DNA of 39,404 bases from Candidatus Methanophagales archaeon (GTDB lineage: Archaea; Halobacteriota; Syntropharchaeia; Alkanophagales; Methanospirareceae). The stretch lies in assembly GCA_021161765.1 (NCBI GenBank), contig JAGGZZ010000081.1, positions 1 to 39,404 on the forward strand, given 5' to 3'. Position 1 is the first letter of the stretch. Each line of letters begins with the position of its first letter. The notes beneath the pieces were generated by a model that saw nothing but the letters and a program-made list of their open reading frames with translations, was not told the origin of the DNA and did not search any database. The position numbers and the translations under genes are program-made. This document shows, one piece after another, positions 27,629 to 34,008 of the stretch.

Positions 27629-28555
27629 ATGTTGCGAATAACGTTTTTAGGAACCGGTGGCTCGACACCAACGCCGAACAGGAATCCTTCTGCAATAGCG
27701 GTAAATCGCGAAGGGGAACTAATGCTGTTTGATTGTGGAGAAGGCACGCAGCGGCAGATGATGCGTGCAAAGACCGGAATGACGCTAAACTCCATTTTCG
27801 TCACGCATTTCCATGCTGACCATGTGCTCGGTATTCCAGGCCTGTTACAAACGATGGCGTTGCAGGGTAGGAAAGAGCCGCTGGAGATATACGGTCCAAG
27901 ACACGTGGATAAATTCCTGTACCATCTTCTGGCTTTGGGGTATGGAGGAAGGAGTTTTGAAGTAAAAGCGATAGAACTGAAACCAGGGGACGTGGTAAAA
28001 AGACCGAAGTATGAGATAAGAGCGATAAAAACGGTGCACAATATAGTAAGTATAGGATACGTGTTGGAAGAGGCAATGCGACCAGGGAGATTTAATCGGG
28101 AACGAGCAATAGAGCTTGGCATCAAACCCGGTCCTTTATTTTCCAAACTTCAATCAGGGCATTCCATTCTGGTAGATGGGAAAGAAATACGACCGGAGCA
28201 GGTTTTAGGACCGCCGCGACCGGGCAGGAAAATTGTATATACCGGCGATACAAGACCCTGCGAAAGCGTGATAGAAGCAAGCAGGGATGCAGACTTATTA
28301 ATACATGAGGGCACTTTATCGGAGGAAACGCAACGGTATGCGATTGAGTACATGCATTCGACTGCTGCGGAAGCTGCGGAAGTGGCGAAGAAAGCGAGCG
28401 TAAGAAAACTTATCCTGACGCACCTAAGCGCGAGGTATTCGGATTTAGGCGGTACGAGCAAGCTGGAAGAAGAAGCACGGCGTGTGTTTGAGAACACCGA
28501 AGTTGCAAGAGAGTTAATGACGATAGAAATTCCTTATAGAGTTGAGGGGGAGTGA
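27629..28555 (+). CDS. rnz: Ribonuclease Z (tRNA 3' endonuclease)
   Basis: The translation MLRITFLGTGGSTPTPNRNPSAIAV...THFHADHVLGIPGLL... shows a metallo-beta-lactamase fold. I chose the start at ATG 27629. The track start at 27584 is a GTG in the centre of the palindrome. Confidence 0.85.
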   Translation: MLRITFLGTGGSTPTPNRNPSAIAVNREGELMLFDCGEGTQRQMMRAKTGMTLNSIFVTHFHADHVLGIPGLLQTMALQGRKEPLEIYGPRHVDKFLYHLLALGYGGRSFEVKAIELKPGDVVKRPKYEIRAIKTVHNIVSIGYVLEEAMRPGRFNRERAIELGIKPGPLFSKLQSGHSILVDGKEIRPEQVLGPPRPGRKIVYTGDTRPCESVIEASRDADLLIHEGTLSEETQRYAIEYMHSTAAEAAEVAKKASVRKLILTHLSARYSDLGGTSKLEEEARRVFENTEVARELMTIEIPYRVEGE

Positions 28556-28868
28556 GGAGAGTAAGCCCCCTTCTGTTTCGGCAGCATTTATCTGCGCGCC
28601 TTCTTGATTTGAGGCTTGCACCCACGAGGTTGGTCGTTCCATCCGTTGCCATACGACCTCATCCTTGCGGAATCATTGCATTGGTATGGCACGGTATCGT
28701 TTCTATACCATAGCCAAGACTCTCGCCTTATGCCCTCACGGCATTCGTGTTTTCGCGGTGGAGGGACTTTCCTCAGCCAGCCCTTCGACAAAAGGTTGAC
28801 CAGTACATATTTTCCGTCAACGCTTTTTTTTTAAAGGGTTGTCCGGCAGCTGCCCTTCCTCTCTCCCC
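28545..28868 (-). ncRNA. rnpB: RNase P RNA (archaeal type-A-like)
   Basis: The minus strand contains CR-I GAGGAAAGUCCCUCC (28774-28760) and CR-V AGAUAAAUGCUGCCGAAACAGAAGGGGGCUUAC (ending at 28561). P1 can form between GGGGAG-A-GAGGA (5') and UCCUC-A-CUCCCC (3'). P2 can form between GGCAGC and GCUGCC, placed as in bacterial/archaeal models. A TATA-like AAAATATATA lies at 28900-28891, about 25-30 nt upstream of the proposed 5' end. The ends are accurate to about +/-5 nt. Confidence 0.8.
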
Positions 28869-28914: not shown

Positions 28915-30045
28915 TCAGCGAATAATGGGTATCATATCTCCAATTCCACCTCTACGACCGGCACTTGCACCCACATTCTTTACCTTCAGGTTTGTAGTAC
29001 CCTCTTTTCGGTCTTCATATCTTCCACCGAATACCCATGTTGGCTCTACACCGGTAATTATCGCCGTCACCCTTGCTTTTCCCGCGTAATCGTTATCTAT
29101 TCTCGCTCCCCATATCACGTTTGCATCAGGATTCAAGTCGTAGGTGAGCAACTCCACGATGTCGTTTGTCTCGATCATTGTAAGGTCCGAGCCGCCGGTG
29201 ATGTGTATAAGAGCACCTCTTGCACCTCGATAGTCCGCTTCGAGCAGCGGATGGCTGAGCGCATCCGACACCACCGCTTCGGGTTTGTTCTCCGCTTTTG
29301 TTGTCTCGCCGACGAGCATCACCGCGACACCGCCTTCTGCCATTACTGCCTTGAGGTCGGCAAAGTCGAGATTAACCAGGGAAGGTTGTGTTACCGTCCC
29401 CGCTATGCCCTGTATTGTACTTGCAATCAACATGTCCATTGTTTTAAAAGCGTCATTCACCGAGAGGTTCCCCGCGTATTTTAGTAATTTGTCGTTCTCC
29501 AACACGATAACCGTATCTGTTGTTTCTCGCAATGCCTCTATCCCCTCTGCTGCCCTGTCTCTCCTTTTCCGTTCCACACCAAATGGGAACGAGACCATAG
29601 CAACGACAATCGCGCCCGCTTCCTTTGCTATCTCTGCAACAACGGGTGAAGCCCCTGTGCCTGTTCCTCCGCCCATTCCCGCAGTGAGGAACACAAAGTT
29701 CTTATCTGCCAGCAACACTTCTAATTCATTTCTGTCTATTTCCGCTGCTTTCCTCGCTACTTCTGGTGACCCTCCGGCTCCTAATCCCCGGGTAAGTGAC
29801 CGCCCTATCAATACCTTCTTTTCGCAACTTATCGAATCCAGGTGCAGCTTGTCGGTATTTATAGCTATTCTATCTACGCCACCCAGTCCCCCTAAGCTCT
29901 CTAACCTGTTCATAGAGTTGTTACCTGCTCCGCCCACACCAACGATTGCTATCTTCGGCACACCAAACCAATCTTCCTCTGCTTCTTCATTCACACCTAT
30001 TTCCTCTGGGCTATGCCCAAATATTGTATCCATCTTGTCTTCCAT
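28915..30045 (-). CDS. ftsZ: Cell division GTPase FtsZ
   Basis: Motifs present are IAIVGVGGAGNN, the GMGGGTGTGASPVVAEIAKE tubulin signature and NDKLL. Confidence 0.9.
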   Translation of the reverse strand: MEDKMDTIFGHSPEEIGVNEEAEEDWFGVPKIAIVGVGGAGNNSMNRLESLGGLGGVDRIAINTDKLHLDSISCEKKVLIGRSLTRGLGAGGSPEVARKAAEIDRNELEVLLADKNFVFLTAGMGGGTGTGASPVVAEIAKEAGAIVVAMVSFPFGVERKRRDRAAEGIEALRETTDTVIVLENDKLLKYAGNLSVNDAFKTMDMLIASTIQGIAGTVTQPSLVNLDFADLKAVMAEGGVAVMLVGETTKAENKPEAVVSDALSHPLLEADYRGARGALIHITGGSDLTMIETNDIVELLTYDLNPDANVIWGARIDNDYAGKARVTAIITGVEPTWVFGGRYEDRKEGTTNLKVKNVGASAGRRGGIGDMIPIIR

Positions 30046-30233
30046 CCCCTTTTTTTTACCTCATTTACGTACAATTTTTCTTGGTAATTGTTTCCTTAAG
30101 AAGGAAGGGTTATATAAAGCTTCCGGTTAAATACGGTATATAAATAGTTTTCAGAATAACTTTTTAGAAAGATAGAAGAGAATAGTAATAGAAATAGAAA
30201 TTTGCCGTCCTTGGAGAGAGGGGGAAAGTGAAA

Positions 30234-31130
30234 ATGGTGGATAAATTCAATGAAAATGCGAATGTATTAGCCGCTGAATATTGGAGATTAGAAAAAATAA
30301 CTGCTGATAAAGCGAGTGATGACAGGTTAGACGAGATAGAAGAGCTATTGGAAAAGGGGATAGGGGGAAAGCTAAGGGAGAAGCTGGATGCCGAAGCGAA
30401 GCAGCTGAGAAAGGAGAAGGAAGACAGAAGCAGTGCCGTTTTGAAGGTAGAAGAGGTTAAAAAGGAGCTATTAGAGCTAACTGCGGATTTTGCTCCTAAT
30501 CTTGACTCCTTTGATGGGACTTGCTTTCCCTACGATAGCGAGCATGAGCCGATTTCTGAAGCTTATTTCTCCGCTCTTACTAACAGCTTTCTTGGCAAAC
30601 CACAGCCAAGTATTCAATTTAAAGAGGCCACTTTTTCTACGGCTGGCATAGAAATTCACTCTGAGGAGAATTCGCCTTTGAAGGTTCTGGGGTATATAAT
30701 AATGATAATACAGGAGGCAGCGAAGCACATGCTCGGTATGGAAAACAAAATAGACAAGAGCTATATGCTGCTCAAACAGAATGGATACGCTCTTAGTGCA
30801 CTGGAAACGTTGATTAAAGAGGGGAGGAGACTGCGGATAAAGGAAATAAAAGATATTTCTCACCACGAAGACAAGGAATATAAAGAGCTTGTAAGTGATG
30901 ATACCTACGACAAAGAGCTTGTTAATGGCGTTGTATATTTAGTAAGCGGTGAGAGAGGGTATAACCTGGCGAAGGAATATGACGGTGAATACGAAGCGAC
31001 AGATTTTGGCGAATGGGTATGGCGAATTTGTAACAACGAGGTGAGCAAAGAGGAAGGGTTAGGGAAAAGAAAAAGTATTTCCGATTCAAGCTCGAATATT
31101 CATAAGATGCTGAAATTCTTTAAGAAGTGA
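30234..31130 (+). CDS. Hypothetical protein (charged coiled-coil N-part, possible winged-helix-like C-part)
   Basis: This is an ORF of about 298 aa. ATG 30234 is preceded by GGAGAGAGGGGG (the track start at 30228 is GTG). No family was recognised. Confidence 0.5.
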   Translation: MVDKFNENANVLAAEYWRLEKITADKASDDRLDEIEELLEKGIGGKLREKLDAEAKQLRKEKEDRSSAVLKVEEVKKELLELTADFAPNLDSFDGTCFPYDSEHEPISEAYFSALTNSFLGKPQPSIQFKEATFSTAGIEIHSEENSPLKVLGYIIMIIQEAAKHMLGMENKIDKSYMLLKQNGYALSALETLIKEGRRLRIKEIKDISHHEDKEYKELVSDDTYDKELVNGVVYLVSGERGYNLAKEYDGEYEATDFGEWVWRICNNEVSKEEGLGKRKSISDSSSNIHKMLKFFKK

Positions 31131-31178
31131 AAAAACAAAAAAAACAAAAATTAAAAATAAAAGGTGAGGGGGGAAGAG

Positions 31179-31898
31179 ATGAGAGCGGAGCAGGAGAAGG
31201 AAAAAGTGGGGAGGGAAAAAGCTGTTGCCTACTTGCGGTCCCGGTTATTTCCGTGGAATTTTGTTTTTGAGCCGGTTGAAGAGGATGCGATAAAACATTT
31301 TGTCCGCTATGCAATCCAAATTTGTGAGGAGAAGGGGATAGAGAAGGGGACGATATCCGTCAGTAAAGATGACGTAAAAGAATTGATTACAAAGGAGGTA
31401 AAAGAGGCAGTGAACGAGTACCTATTTGACGTAGATGGAGGGGATATGACGAGGATACACGGTAAATTTGCCGTTAGCTATCCCTTTGCGTTCGCCCAAT
31501 GTTTGGTGCACACCATTTTATATCGGCTTGGACTCGAGCTGGAAGATGTAGTGGATGTAAAAGCGATAGGCGATTTATTAGGGCAGGATGTAGAAGAGAT
31601 AAGAAGGAGTGAGCCGTTTATCAGGAATTTAATATCCAAGCGCGGAAAAGGAGCGATGAAGATGTTTGGTAAATCTATTTTGGATAGAAAGATTATAACG
31701 GCAGGAGGGGAGTACATAGGGAACGTGGGGGATATTGTTTTTGAAATCGAAACGGGAAAGGTAGGGGGGTTAATAGTAAATCAGCAAAAACAAAAAGGCG
31801 CAGACAGGGATTTGGAAAAGGGCAGAATATCCATGCACGATGTGCGTTTAAATATGTACAGTAAAAATGTTGTTCTAAAATATTCAAGCTATAAATGA
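31179..31898 (+). CDS. Protein with C-terminal PRC-barrel domain
   Basis: The C-terminal GKSILDRKIITAGGEYIGNVGDIVFEIETGKVGGLIV...ISMHDV...NVVL matches the PRC-barrel pattern. The N-terminal region of about 165 aa is unassigned. ATG 31179 is preceded by GGTGAGGGGGG. Confidence 0.6.
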   Translation: MRAEQEKEKVGREKAVAYLRSRLFPWNFVFEPVEEDAIKHFVRYAIQICEEKGIEKGTISVSKDDVKELITKEVKEAVNEYLFDVDGGDMTRIHGKFAVSYPFAFAQCLVHTILYRLGLELEDVVDVKAIGDLLGQDVEEIRRSEPFIRNLISKRGKGAMKMFGKSILDRKIITAGGEYIGNVGDIVFEIETGKVGGLIVNQQKQKGADRDLEKGRISMHDVRLNMYSKNVVLKYSSYK

Positions 31899-31990
31899 AT
31901 ATTTATTATAATTATATACGATAGGACACTGCAAAATAACATATAACATATAAAGTACAATAAATTAGAAAGGGGGAAAGGAGAAACAAA

Positions 31991-33142
31991 ATGCGGGTAT
32001 TTATGATAGGCTATGGACAAGCGGGAGGCAGAGTTGCAGACGCATTTTTGGAATTTGCAAAGCGAACGGGGCAGAATTTTGTGATTAATGCCGTGGCTAT
32101 TAATACAGCGAAATCCGATTTGATGGGGCTAAAGAACATCCCAATGGAAGACCGGGTGCTTATAGGCGAGGCATTGGCGAAAGGGCATGGAATAGGGGCA
32201 GATAACGAATTAGGGGCGAAGGTTGCCACTGATGAAATTTATACCATACAAACGGAGATAGATAAACGAGGGACACATCAGGTGGATGCGTTTCTGGTAA
32301 TTGCGGGCTTAGGAGGTGGAACAGGTTCGGGAGGTGCCCCCGTGCTGGCAAGAAGGCTGAAGAAATTATATGAAGAGCCGGTTTACGGGCTGGGGATATT
32401 ACCGGCGAAGGGTGAGGGAAGTTTATACTCTTTAAACGCTGCACGGAGTCTGATGACGTTCATGAATGAGGTTGACAATCTTTTCCTTTTCGATAATGAT
32501 GCGTGGAAGACAGGAGGAGAGACGGTAAAAGAGGCATATAGGGACATAAACGAGGAGATAGTGAGGAGATTCGGAATTTTGTTTGGTGCGGGGGAAGCGA
32601 ATGAAGTAGGGCAGATGGTGGTAGATGCTGCGGAGATAATGAACACGCTTAAAGGAGGCGGAATATCCACAATTGGCTATGCTGCGGAAGGCATAGAGCG
32701 AAAAGGAGGATTAAAGAAGCTTTTCAGGAAGAAGAGGACGATGGATACGCTGGATTCAGTTACAAGGATTACTTCTTTGACAAGGAGAGCAGTAGCAGGC
32801 AGATTAACGATTCCGTGTGAACCGTCAAGTGCGGAAAGGGCATTGATAATAGCAGCGGGACCACCGGAGGAGTTAAGCAGGAAGGGGATGGAGAAATCGA
32901 AGGAACGGATAGAGGAGATGATAAGAGGAACGGAAGTAAGAGGCGGTGATTTCCCGGTTGTAAAGAGTGAACATGTGGCGACAATTGTGCTCTTTTCCGG
33001 TGTATCTGATATACCAAGAATAAAAGAGCTACAGGAAATGGGAGCAGAAGCACAGGAGACATTAAAAGAGGTGACAAGTGAGAAGGAGCGAGAATATCAG
33101 GAATTAATGGATACAAACGGGAATATAAAGCCTTTGTTCTGA
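31991..33142 (+). CDS. cetZ: Tubulin/FtsZ-superfamily protein of the CetZ type
   Basis: The translation MRVFMIGYGQAGGRVADAFLEF...AINTAKSDLMGL...GHGIGADNELGA...AGLGGGTGSGGAPVLARRLKKLYEEPVYGLGILP...FDNDAW tracks the haloarchaeal CetZ pattern closely. Confidence 0.85.
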   Translation: MRVFMIGYGQAGGRVADAFLEFAKRTGQNFVINAVAINTAKSDLMGLKNIPMEDRVLIGEALAKGHGIGADNELGAKVATDEIYTIQTEIDKRGTHQVDAFLVIAGLGGGTGSGGAPVLARRLKKLYEEPVYGLGILPAKGEGSLYSLNAARSLMTFMNEVDNLFLFDNDAWKTGGETVKEAYRDINEEIVRRFGILFGAGEANEVGQMVVDAAEIMNTLKGGGISTIGYAAEGIERKGGLKKLFRKKRTMDTLDSVTRITSLTRRAVAGRLTIPCEPSSAERALIIAAGPPEELSRKGMEKSKERIEEMIRGTEVRGGDFPVVKSEHVATIVLFSGVSDIPRIKELQEMGAEAQETLKEVTSEKEREYQELMDTNGNIKPLF

Positions 33143-33156
33143 GGTGAGATAGGAGG

Positions 33157-34008
33157 ATGAGAATAACGTTGACAAAGGAATTATTATTTTCATTAATATT
33201 GGCGTTTTTTTTGATGTCGCTATGCATGAGCGTAAGCGGGGTTGTTGCGAAAGAGCCAACTACCTTACAGAAATCCCCTTTCGTGACCGCGGAAATAAAG
33301 AATATAGATTATGACGAGGTATATGGAACTGGAATGGTAAAAAATGGCAGTGAAGTTTCCATAAAAGTTGTTTTAACTAATATTAGCAAAGAAATAGACA
33401 AATCAACACTTATTTTTTATTCAGAATTGGTAGGAGCAAAAGGGCTTATAATGGAGGAGGGACTCAAAAGCGGCAGTCCTTACACATTGGAACACAAGGA
33501 AGTGGAAGAAGAAGTTGTAGTAATTTGGTCGGGGACAGCACCGGAAGTGAGGAAGAGAACGCCATGCCTTTTGCTAAACATAACGCAGGAGACAACGGAG
33601 GAGAAATATTTGGTGGTAGATATAAAAAAGGATGTGACATCCGAGATAAGTGAGTCGGCTATAATCGCAATAGATGAAGCACGAGAAAAGTTAAACAGTG
33701 CGAATTGGACTATTGCTAACGCTACAGAAAAAGGAATTGACGTATCCGAAGCAGATACGACTTTTGAAACGGCCAGTTTGTATTTTAAAGATGCTAAAGA
33801 GGCCTATTGGGACGGGTGGCCAAAAGAGTCGATAGAAGCAGCAACAAACGCTTCTTATTATGCCGAGCTTGCGAAACAAAAAGCCGAATCGGCAGTTGGC
33901 GCTAAAAAGCATCTGAGTTATGGTGGTCTGGCTGTAGTGGCGATTATCGCAATAGTGGTAATTGTATTTTTAAATAGAGCAAGGCGAAGAAAACGAGGCG
34001 TATATTGA
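33157..34008 (+). CDS. Exported protein with signal peptide and C-terminal TM anchor
   Basis: It has an N-terminal hydrophobic leader ending ...MSVSGVVA and a C-terminal GGLAVVAIIAIVVIVFL followed by a basic tail RARRRKRG. It starts 14 nt after cetZ. Confidence 0.6.
   Translation: MRITLTKELLFSLILAFFLMSLCMSVSGVVAKEPTTLQKSPFVTAEIKNIDYDEVYGTGMVKNGSEVSIKVVLTNISKEIDKSTLIFYSELVGAKGLIMEEGLKSGSPYTLEHKEVEEEVVVIWSGTAPEVRKRTPCLLLNITQETTEEKYLVVDIKKDVTSEISESAIIAIDEAREKLNSANWTIANATEKGIDVSEADTTFETASLYFKDAKEAYWDGWPKESIEAATNASYYAELAKQKAESAVGAKKHLSYGGLAVVAIIAIVVIVFLNRARRRKRGVY

Follow-up and report, generated by a model that had tools for sequence, protein, structure and literature searches.

A conserved cetZ gene module with candidate membrane and envelope partners in ANME-1 archaea

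We analyzed a 39,404-nucleotide (nt) contig (C17, hereafter the window) from a Candidatus Methanophagales archaeon, a member of anaerobic methanotrophic group 1 (ANME-1) whose 1.77-Mb metagenome-assembled genome (MAG) is 86% complete; close relatives of the encoded proteins carry Methanophagales or ANME-1 labels. Between positions 28,915 and 34,008, the window carries a gene for the tubulin homolog CetZ (cetZ). It is preceded by genes for a 298-aa protein (cc298) and a 239-aa PRC-barrel protein (PRC239) and followed by a gene for a 283-aa exported protein (sec283). The evidence below favors an operon that serves CetZ as an accessory and anchoring module, a reading to which we assign a probability of roughly 0.6. 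CetZ proteins control rod shape and motility in archaea, and the locus names three candidate partners for the attachment of CetZ to membrane and envelope, i.e. sec283, PRC239 and cc298.

All five genes of a preliminary description were found in the open reading frame (ORF) list at the positions given there, with ftsZ (28915-30045, minus strand) divergent from the co-directional genes cc298 (30234-31130), PRC239 (31179-31898), cetZ (31991-33142) and sec283 (33157-34008) on the plus strand. From the comparisons that follow, the functional unit is the string cc298, PRC239, cetZ and sec283, and ftsZ lies outside it. The window proteins were compared by tblastn with the loci of 18 other ANME-1 species, and further surveys covered 79 species genomes of the class and 401 genomes of the phylum Halobacteriota. 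Families of the class and phylum are coded f1-f32, ANME-1 genera g1-g12 and individual loci L0xx; the lineage names of relatives rest on a few source labels.

The order cc298-PRC239-cetZ-sec283 was observed in 15 of the 18 other ANME-1 loci, in the class families f4 and f1, and in four further Halobacteriota families with small genomes (f12, f18, f20 and f32), where neighbouring genes often overlap by 1-26 nt at their stop and start codons and no ftsZ is found nearby. One of these small genomes is labelled 'Methanosarcinales archaeon', and related proteins carry the labels Archaeoglobi or Candidatus Mnemosynella. PRC239 orthologs in lineages with the same order are only ~27-40% identical to the window protein. 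Thus, the order, whose conservation in related genomes the preliminary description had made a test of its proposal, is kept well beyond ANME-1, including other Halobacteriota families. Among the 79 class genomes, PRC239 lies directly downstream of every copy of cc298 (57/57), cetZ comes next after 46 of the 76 PRC239 copies, and cc298 occurs together with cetZ in 53 of 56 genomes, the module abutting a contig end in two of the three exceptions. With ftsZ divergently upstream at 16 of the 18 other ANME-1 loci and the four-gene string recurring in distant lineages, the gene arrangement is far beyond chance. In addition, ANME-1 genus g12 and part of genus g4 are without cc298, cetZ and sec283; because the PRC239 copies kept there belong to a separate clade (clade B, below), the PRC239 copy of the module has been lost as well. 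On this comparison, the complete clade A module has been lost as a unit at least twice, and this joint loss is the strongest indirect evidence that the four module genes work together.

In a maximum-likelihood tree of PRC239, the copies from CetZ modules form clade A (support 97/94), and the copies from CetZ-less ANME-1 lineages fall in its sister clade B (93/89); genome G013 carries one of each. The idea that the module protein works without CetZ, suggested by the retention of PRC239 in CetZ-less genera, was rejected, since the tree shows these copies to be a separate paralog. Clade B PRC239 is followed, with overlapping codons, by genes for a ~660-aa MutS-domain-V-like ABC ATPase and a ~330-aa winged helix-turn-helix (wHTH) protein. 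These three-gene operons were located at L055:6916-10687, L057:2512-6278, L059:7426-11193, L062:6727-10339 and L033:5001-8766, where the ABC ATPase is MutS-domain-V/MutS2/KamC-like and the third gene encodes a double-wHTH protein (AAA_assoc_C). In genus g12 the operon is divergent from ftsZ2 and occupies the slot used by the CetZ module in other genera; the g4 copies of the paralog are not near ftsZ. In the genome of the window, the MutS-like ATPase gene stands alone (C60:3150-5120, minus strand), and neither a PRC239-B paralog nor a wHTH partner gene was detectable. In MAG LH_S14, a MutS-like ATPase gene (L013:6978-8777, minus strand) is convergent with PRC239-A and follows it directly, at the place expected for cetZ, and no cetZ was found at this locus; the arrangement may represent a transitional stage in which the CetZ module is being replaced. 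The wHTH partner of the paralog and cc298 are unrelated (hhalign probability 0.4%).

The 383-aa CetZ of the window is CetZ1-like by its database scores. Both the CetZ_C domain (PF21011, 228 bits) and the tubulin GTPase domain (PF00091, 114.9 bits) score above their cut-offs, which bears out its description as a CetZ-type tubulin homolog, and its score against the FtsZ model TIGR00065 is 82 bits, below the cut-off of 295. Against the PDB it scores 455 bits with Haloferax volcanii CetZ1 (4B46), 274 with CetZ2 (4B45) and 79 with the Methanosaeta-type CetZ of M. thermophila (3ZID). This protein is the sole CetZ in its genome, and it ends in a hydrophobic tail (...NIKPLF). The 92-nt gap upstream of cetZ contains a TATA-like stretch and a Shine-Dalgarno sequence.

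The sec283 gene starts 14 nt past the cetZ stop codon, with a Shine-Dalgarno sequence ahead of it. The product had been described as a signal-peptide protein with a C-terminal transmembrane (TM) anchor encoded 14 nt after cetZ, and both the start and the topology hold: there are exactly two hydrophobic segments (residues 3-32 and 251-277). Six N-X-S/T sequons lie between these segments, and none occurs in cc298, PRC239 or CetZ. Hydropathy, sequons and the family alignment predict a Sec-type signal peptide at residues ~1-31, then one beta-rich and one Ala-rich helical domain, and finally a TM helix (~255-275) that leaves a short, basic tail on the cytoplasmic side (RARRRKRGVY). The protein matches no Pfam or NCBIfam family and is probably an N-glycosylated surface protein anchored at its C-terminus.

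A sec283 profile recovered weaker homologs in 165 of the 401 Halobacteriota genomes. In 13 of 16 loci fetched on the sec283 match alone, a CetZ1-like gene, 51-57% identical to that of the window, lies immediately upstream on the same strand. With CetZ_C positions taken from a second phylum-wide search, 54 of the 56 testable sec283-like genes outside the cc298 lineages sit directly downstream of a CetZ1-like cetZ. Among them are high-GC haloarchaeal loci in which a nolA-like epimerase gene lies upstream. The homologs share the signal peptide, a beta domain with an L.G.AP.V motif, the Ala-rich helical domain and the TM helix, and most lineages share a tail of the form [W/Y]D[K/E/R]LG: YDKLG in haloarchaea, WDELG in Methanomicrobia-type loci and WDRLG/WERL in module lineages outside ANME-1, with KRGVY in ANME-1. 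Conservation of so short a tail argues for a cytoplasmic partner, for which CetZ would be the obvious candidate. By its distribution, the cetZ-sec283 pair is phylum-wide and much older than the four-gene module, and the suggestion that the membrane-anchored neighbour might be a partner is strengthened to the extent that sec283 is a conserved partner gene of cetZ. A second tubulin-like gene (339 aa, 30% identical to CetZ) was also noted in a low-GC Halobacteriota genome (L077:8286-9305, minus strand), where this very divergent gene adjoins the cetZ-sec283 pair directly upstream.

The cc298 product is predicted to be cytoplasmic and, by the searches made, is an orphan family. Its sequence gave nothing significant in Pfam, NCBIfam or the PDB, its homologs with a source name are all called 'hypothetical protein', and a Pfam domain was found in none of them. 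Within the 401 phylum genomes, a cc298 profile placed the family in 62, and outside the class of the window in no family except f12, f18, f20 and f32. An AlphaFold2 model (predicted local distance difference test score, pLDDT, 82.8; predicted template modelling score, pTM, 0.77) has a helical hairpin (residues 2-84), an alpha/beta middle part, a winged-helix-like C-terminal part (helix-helix-helix-hairpin), a low-confidence disordered linker (271-286) and a terminal helix (287-296). The preliminary name of coiled-coil protein is therefore apt for the first ~85 residues, which form a coiled-coil-type helical hairpin, and does not describe the rest. In a Foldseek search of the PDB, the model had no match below E=0.08, and its MarR/CAP-like winged-helix matches were non-significant (E>2). 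Matches of cc298 and the PRC239 N-terminal domain to IDH1, REV1 and V-ATPase subunit H (E ~0.1-0.7) were judged to be chance and set aside.

The terminal helix of cc298 (NIHKMLKFFKK, nt 31092-31127) is basic and amphipathic. Its 11 residues have a hydrophobic moment of 0.69, compared with a protein mean of 0.30 (standard deviation 0.14), and a net charge of +4, and this character is kept in cc298 relatives. Peripheral membrane anchors for FtsZ-family filaments are usually built in this way, with a short, positively charged amphipathic helix at one terminus that a flexible linker separates from the fold, and cc298 has this design. In its sequence features the helix resembles the terminal amphipathic helices of SepF and MinD/FtsA, to which cc298 has no relation in sequence or fold.

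PRC239 ends in a PRC barrel, as had been noticed from its sequence: PF05239 matches residues 162-206 with 31.6 bits (cut-off 21.2), and the domain is present on nearly all homologs. In the AlphaFold2 model, built from a 33-sequence alignment (pLDDT 81, pTM 0.69), the barrel (nt 31662-31898) comprises six strands between residues 171 and 233, so that the proposal of the preliminary description passes the fold test it had set for this domain. In a Foldseek search of the PDB, the barrel is best matched by 8ONW and 8QZO, which are CdpB1/CdpB2 structures from Archaeoglobus fulgidus (E 2e-4 to 1e-3; target TM-scores of 0.62-0.75); MTH1859 (1PM3), other PRC barrels and reaction-centre H subunits come next. 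Although the full model was searched, all listed matches span just ~66-80 columns, which is the length of the barrel. The preceding all-helical domain (residues 1-158, nt 31179-31652), with helices mostly at pLDDT 85-95, contains the invariant motifs FPWNF..E and H..(F/Y)..YPFA..Q in the alignments. Searched against 1.84 billion representative proteins, a profile of this domain recovered only 22 clusters, of 114-325 aa and each at E<=7e-15, with no remote tail of weaker matches; in the PDB there was no sequence match. It is thus an orphan family as far as these searches reach; the N-terminal extension had been called novel, which holds, with a length of ~158-167 residues rather than about 165.

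The divergent ftsZ scores 371 bits against TIGR00065 (cut-off 295). It probably encodes an FtsZ2 paralog, because the second FtsZ of the genome, encoded beside nusG on contig C260, is much closer to M. jannaschii FtsZ1 (388 bits, compared with 281 bits for the window protein). This gene lies divergently upstream of the module in 16 of the 18 other ANME-1 loci; it is not adjacent in ANME-1 genera g3, g10 and g11 or at loci L008 and L009, nor in any module locus examined outside ANME-1. Membership of ftsZ in the module was therefore rejected on its distribution across lineages. In the small-genome lineages (loci L046-L050), a gene of the ApgM type (cofactor-independent phosphoglycerate-mutase-like, e.g. 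L046:8902-10008) is divergent from the module and followed by homoserine-kinase-like and CofE-like genes, a conserved flank unlike the ftsZ flank of ANME-1. On contig C113 of the window genome (1920-2959, minus strand), two small PRC-barrel genes (85 and ~95 aa, CdpB1/CdpB2-like) stand beside a 517-aa nrnA-like gene of the DHH family, with a gene for a site-2-protease-like CBS-domain membrane protein divergent from them, and SepF is encoded on contig C154. With the CdpB-like barrels, SepF and FtsZ1 all on other contigs, the canonical divisome set is apart from the CetZ locus.

The spacer between ftsZ and cc298 contains a promoter-like core (30093-30147) with elements in both directions. Since the sigma-70 promoter and terminator scan is uninformative for an archaeon, intergenic regions were read by eye with the archaeal consensus for the transcription factor B recognition element (BRE) and TATA box. 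A BRE/TATA element on the minus strand, TTATATAAA (30110-30118), faces ftsZ, and next to it in that direction comes a palindrome-like box centred on CTTAAG (CTTCTTAAGAAG in other genera); a second TATA element, TATATAAATAG (30137-30147), faces the cc298 operon. The core at 30093-30128, TCCTTAAGAAGGAAGGGTTATATAAAGCTTCCGGTT, is almost unchanged from one ANME-1 genus to the next, in contrast to its diverging flanks. We infer back-to-back divergent promoters from these elements, and the CTTAAG palindrome might serve as a regulator site where ftsZ2 transcription begins.

We also compared the module with known systems. CdvA is the membrane recruiter of ESCRT-III in Crenarchaea, and the contact is made through the winged-helix domain of its partner. 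Within the Cdv system, CdvA combines a PRC barrel and a coiled coil in one fused protein (10.1101/2023.03.28.534520). Its PRC barrel, coiled-coil and membrane-binding elements, which recruit a cytoskeletal polymer, have parallels in PRC239 and cc298; however, CdvA is one protein, whereas in the module these elements are split over two, the polymer would be a tubulin homolog rather than ESCRT-III, and no sequence similarity between CdvA and PRC239 or cc298 was detected. In H. volcanii, the FtsZ/SepF divisome includes the PRC-barrel proteins CdpB1/2/3, and cdpB1 adjoins nrnA in Haloferax; a PRC gene next to sepF and ftsZ was reported in one genome only, that of a Micrarchaeota archaeon, and no CetZ link was reported for PRC genes (10.1101/2023.03.28.534520). 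CdpB1/CdpB2 and PRC239 have the PRC-barrel fold in common, both are encoded alongside a tubulin-superfamily cytoskeleton in Euryarchaea, and an adaptor or organiser role between membrane anchor and filaments is plausible in both by analogy. However, the CdpBs occur widely in archaea as small proteins of essentially one domain, and SepF recruits them to the FtsZ ring (10.1101/2023.03.28.534520), whereas PRC239 has 239 aa with a ~160-aa orphan helical domain (158 aa in the window protein), is confined to few lineages (22 clusters for the N-terminal domain) and is genomically tied to cc298 and CetZ. In the window genome, the cdpB1-nrnA context is filled by the 85-aa PRC gene on C113 rather than by PRC239.

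H. volcanii CetZ1 (4B46) and the window CetZ share the CetZ_C domain and have comparable tails (LESLF and KPLF, respectively). Mutation of the LESLF tail abolishes rod formation in H. volcanii, and the tail is considered a likely protein-protein interaction site, for which the authors name no partner (10.1101/2024.04.08.588506). Like the window cetZ, haloarchaeal CetZ1-like genes have a sec283-like gene directly downstream; cc298 is undetected there. A review of CetZ stresses nolA and cofactor genes in the cetZ1 neighbourhood, with the nolA-like epimerase gene upstream, does not discuss in its text an anchored protein downstream of cetZ1, and reports no conserved cetZ neighbourhood in Archaeoglobales, Methanomicrobiales and Methanosarcinales (PMC9856176). 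The literature searched contained no description of the cc298-PRC239-cetZ-sec283 module, nothing combining ANME-1 with CetZ or PRC barrels with CetZ function, and no mention of HVO_2203 or HVO_2205.

Gene content, folds, conservation, co-occurrence and co-loss were established, firmly so at the level of the genes; as to membrane binding, protein contacts and a role in cell shape, we infer the following scheme. The ancient core is cetZ with the downstream sec283, its putative trans-envelope partner; ahead of it stand the cytoplasmic genes cc298 and PRC239, as a pair, in ANME-1, Alkanophagales and other Syntropharchaeia and in a handful of sister lineages with small genomes (e.g. Mnemosynella-like). 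The cc298 protein may attach to the inner membrane surface by means of its amphipathic helix, as a peripheral anchor, and PRC239 may bridge or organise the assembly through its PRC barrel, by analogy with SepF-CdpB1-CdpB2 for FtsZ2 and CdvA for ESCRT-III. The hydrophobic C-terminal tail of CetZ, or the filament surface, would dock on cc298/PRC239, and the cytoplasmic tail of sec283 would couple the assembly to the envelope on the outside. In this way the module could position CetZ filaments to give cells a rod or cylinder shape.

Several observations weigh against this operon reading. Families f2 and f6 split the string exactly into cc298-PRC239 and cetZ-sec283, and f3 keeps PRC239 alone with cetZ-sec283 elsewhere, so that PRC239 is not strictly tied to CetZ. 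In genomes without CetZ, paralog B operates in the MutS-like ATPase/wHTH operon. Haloarchaea, in which CetZ1 function is established, have no detectable cc298, and cc298 and PRC239 are thus not universal CetZ partners. The TATA-like stretch before cetZ permits its separate transcription. The winged-helix call for cc298 consists of a secondary-structure pattern and non-significant Foldseek matches, the folds come from single-chain models, and ANME-1 archaea are uncultured.

Among other explanations, PRC239 might be an N-terminally extended CdpB paralog acting with FtsZ2 and SepF in the divisome, with CetZ as a bystander. The best structural matches of its barrel are indeed CdpB1/CdpB2, the promoter core shared with the divergent ftsZ2 of most ANME-1 loci is highly conserved, PRC239 persists in genomes without CetZ, and CetZ-less g12 keeps PRC239-B directly divergent from ftsZ2. 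We nevertheless consider this explanation unlikely, since the ftsZ adjacency is absent from all module loci examined outside ANME-1 and from several ANME-1 lineages, paralog B lies away from ftsZ in g4, canonical CdpB1/CdpB2-like genes and SepF occur elsewhere in the genome, and PRC239-A was lost with cetZ and not with ftsZ. The ANME-1-only adjacency, together with divisome genes located elsewhere, means that the conserved linkage is to CetZ and not to the FtsZ/SepF divisome. Two parts of the preliminary description are thus not supported: the PRC protein is 'sandwiched between both tubulin genes' within ANME-1 only, and the genomic context does not connect it with FtsZ/SepF division. By its distribution, ftsZ2 came to lie divergently beside the module within ANME-1, and this at most hints at co-regulation of division and shape.

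Another possibility is that cc298 and PRC239 are a self-contained, non-cytoskeletal pair, such as a winged-helix/PRC-barrel regulator of transcription or RNA metabolism, which is often parked upstream of cetZ or regulates it. The winged-helix-like part of cc298, the separation of the pair from cetZ in f2 and f6, and the pairing of paralog B with a wHTH protein and a MutS-like ATPase would fit such a role, as would the finding that many archaeal PRC-barrel genes adjoin translation or RNA-processing genes (Zhao et al., 10.1101/2023.03.28.534520). We judge it quite unlikely in view of the co-occurrence of cc298 with cetZ in nearly all class genomes that have it, the loss of cc298 with cetZ on two occasions, and the survival of the four-gene order, with overlapping reading frames, across class-level divergence; furthermore, a conserved, basic amphipathic C-terminal helix after a disordered linker suits a tether to a membrane or partner more than it suits a protein that binds DNA. 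Unrelated genes are often tightly packed in compact archaeal genomes, and chance synteny might thus be considered. However, the same order and strand at such low PRC239 identity, the adjacency counts of 57/57 and 54/56, and the loss of the module as a whole make it highly improbable.

The wider neighborhood of the locus contains dapB, rnz and the archaeal RNase P RNA gene on the left and trm1 (convergent) and secD on the right. The RNase P RNA (RF00373, 197.6 bits; 28550-28865, minus strand) fills the gap between rnz and ftsZ and overlaps the last codons of rnz (end at 28555) on the opposite strand, so that two tRNA-processing genes converge here.

The CetZ operon reading also allows a broader and more tentative proposal, which we regard as possible and as somewhat less probable than not: cetZ-sec283 would be a phylum-wide transmembrane coupling device, haloarchaea included, and cc298 and PRC239 the first dedicated membrane adaptors of CetZ. 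If so, the sec283 tail ([W/Y]D[K/E/R]LG) would be the site, long sought, at which CetZ1 filaments attach to the envelope, and cc298/PRC239 would be for CetZ the equivalent of SepF-CdpB, made up of two orphan folds, with cc298 as a candidate membrane anchor on an orphan fold. If PRC239 works with CetZ, PRC barrels would appear as general adaptors, serving FtsZ through CdpB, ESCRT-III through CdvA, and CetZ as a third cytoskeletal system of archaea. Because a sec283 homolog lies downstream of haloarchaeal CetZ1-like genes, the idea is testable in Haloferax volcanii. For the uncultured methane oxidisers of ANME-1, the module would provide a first molecular lead on their cylindrical shape.

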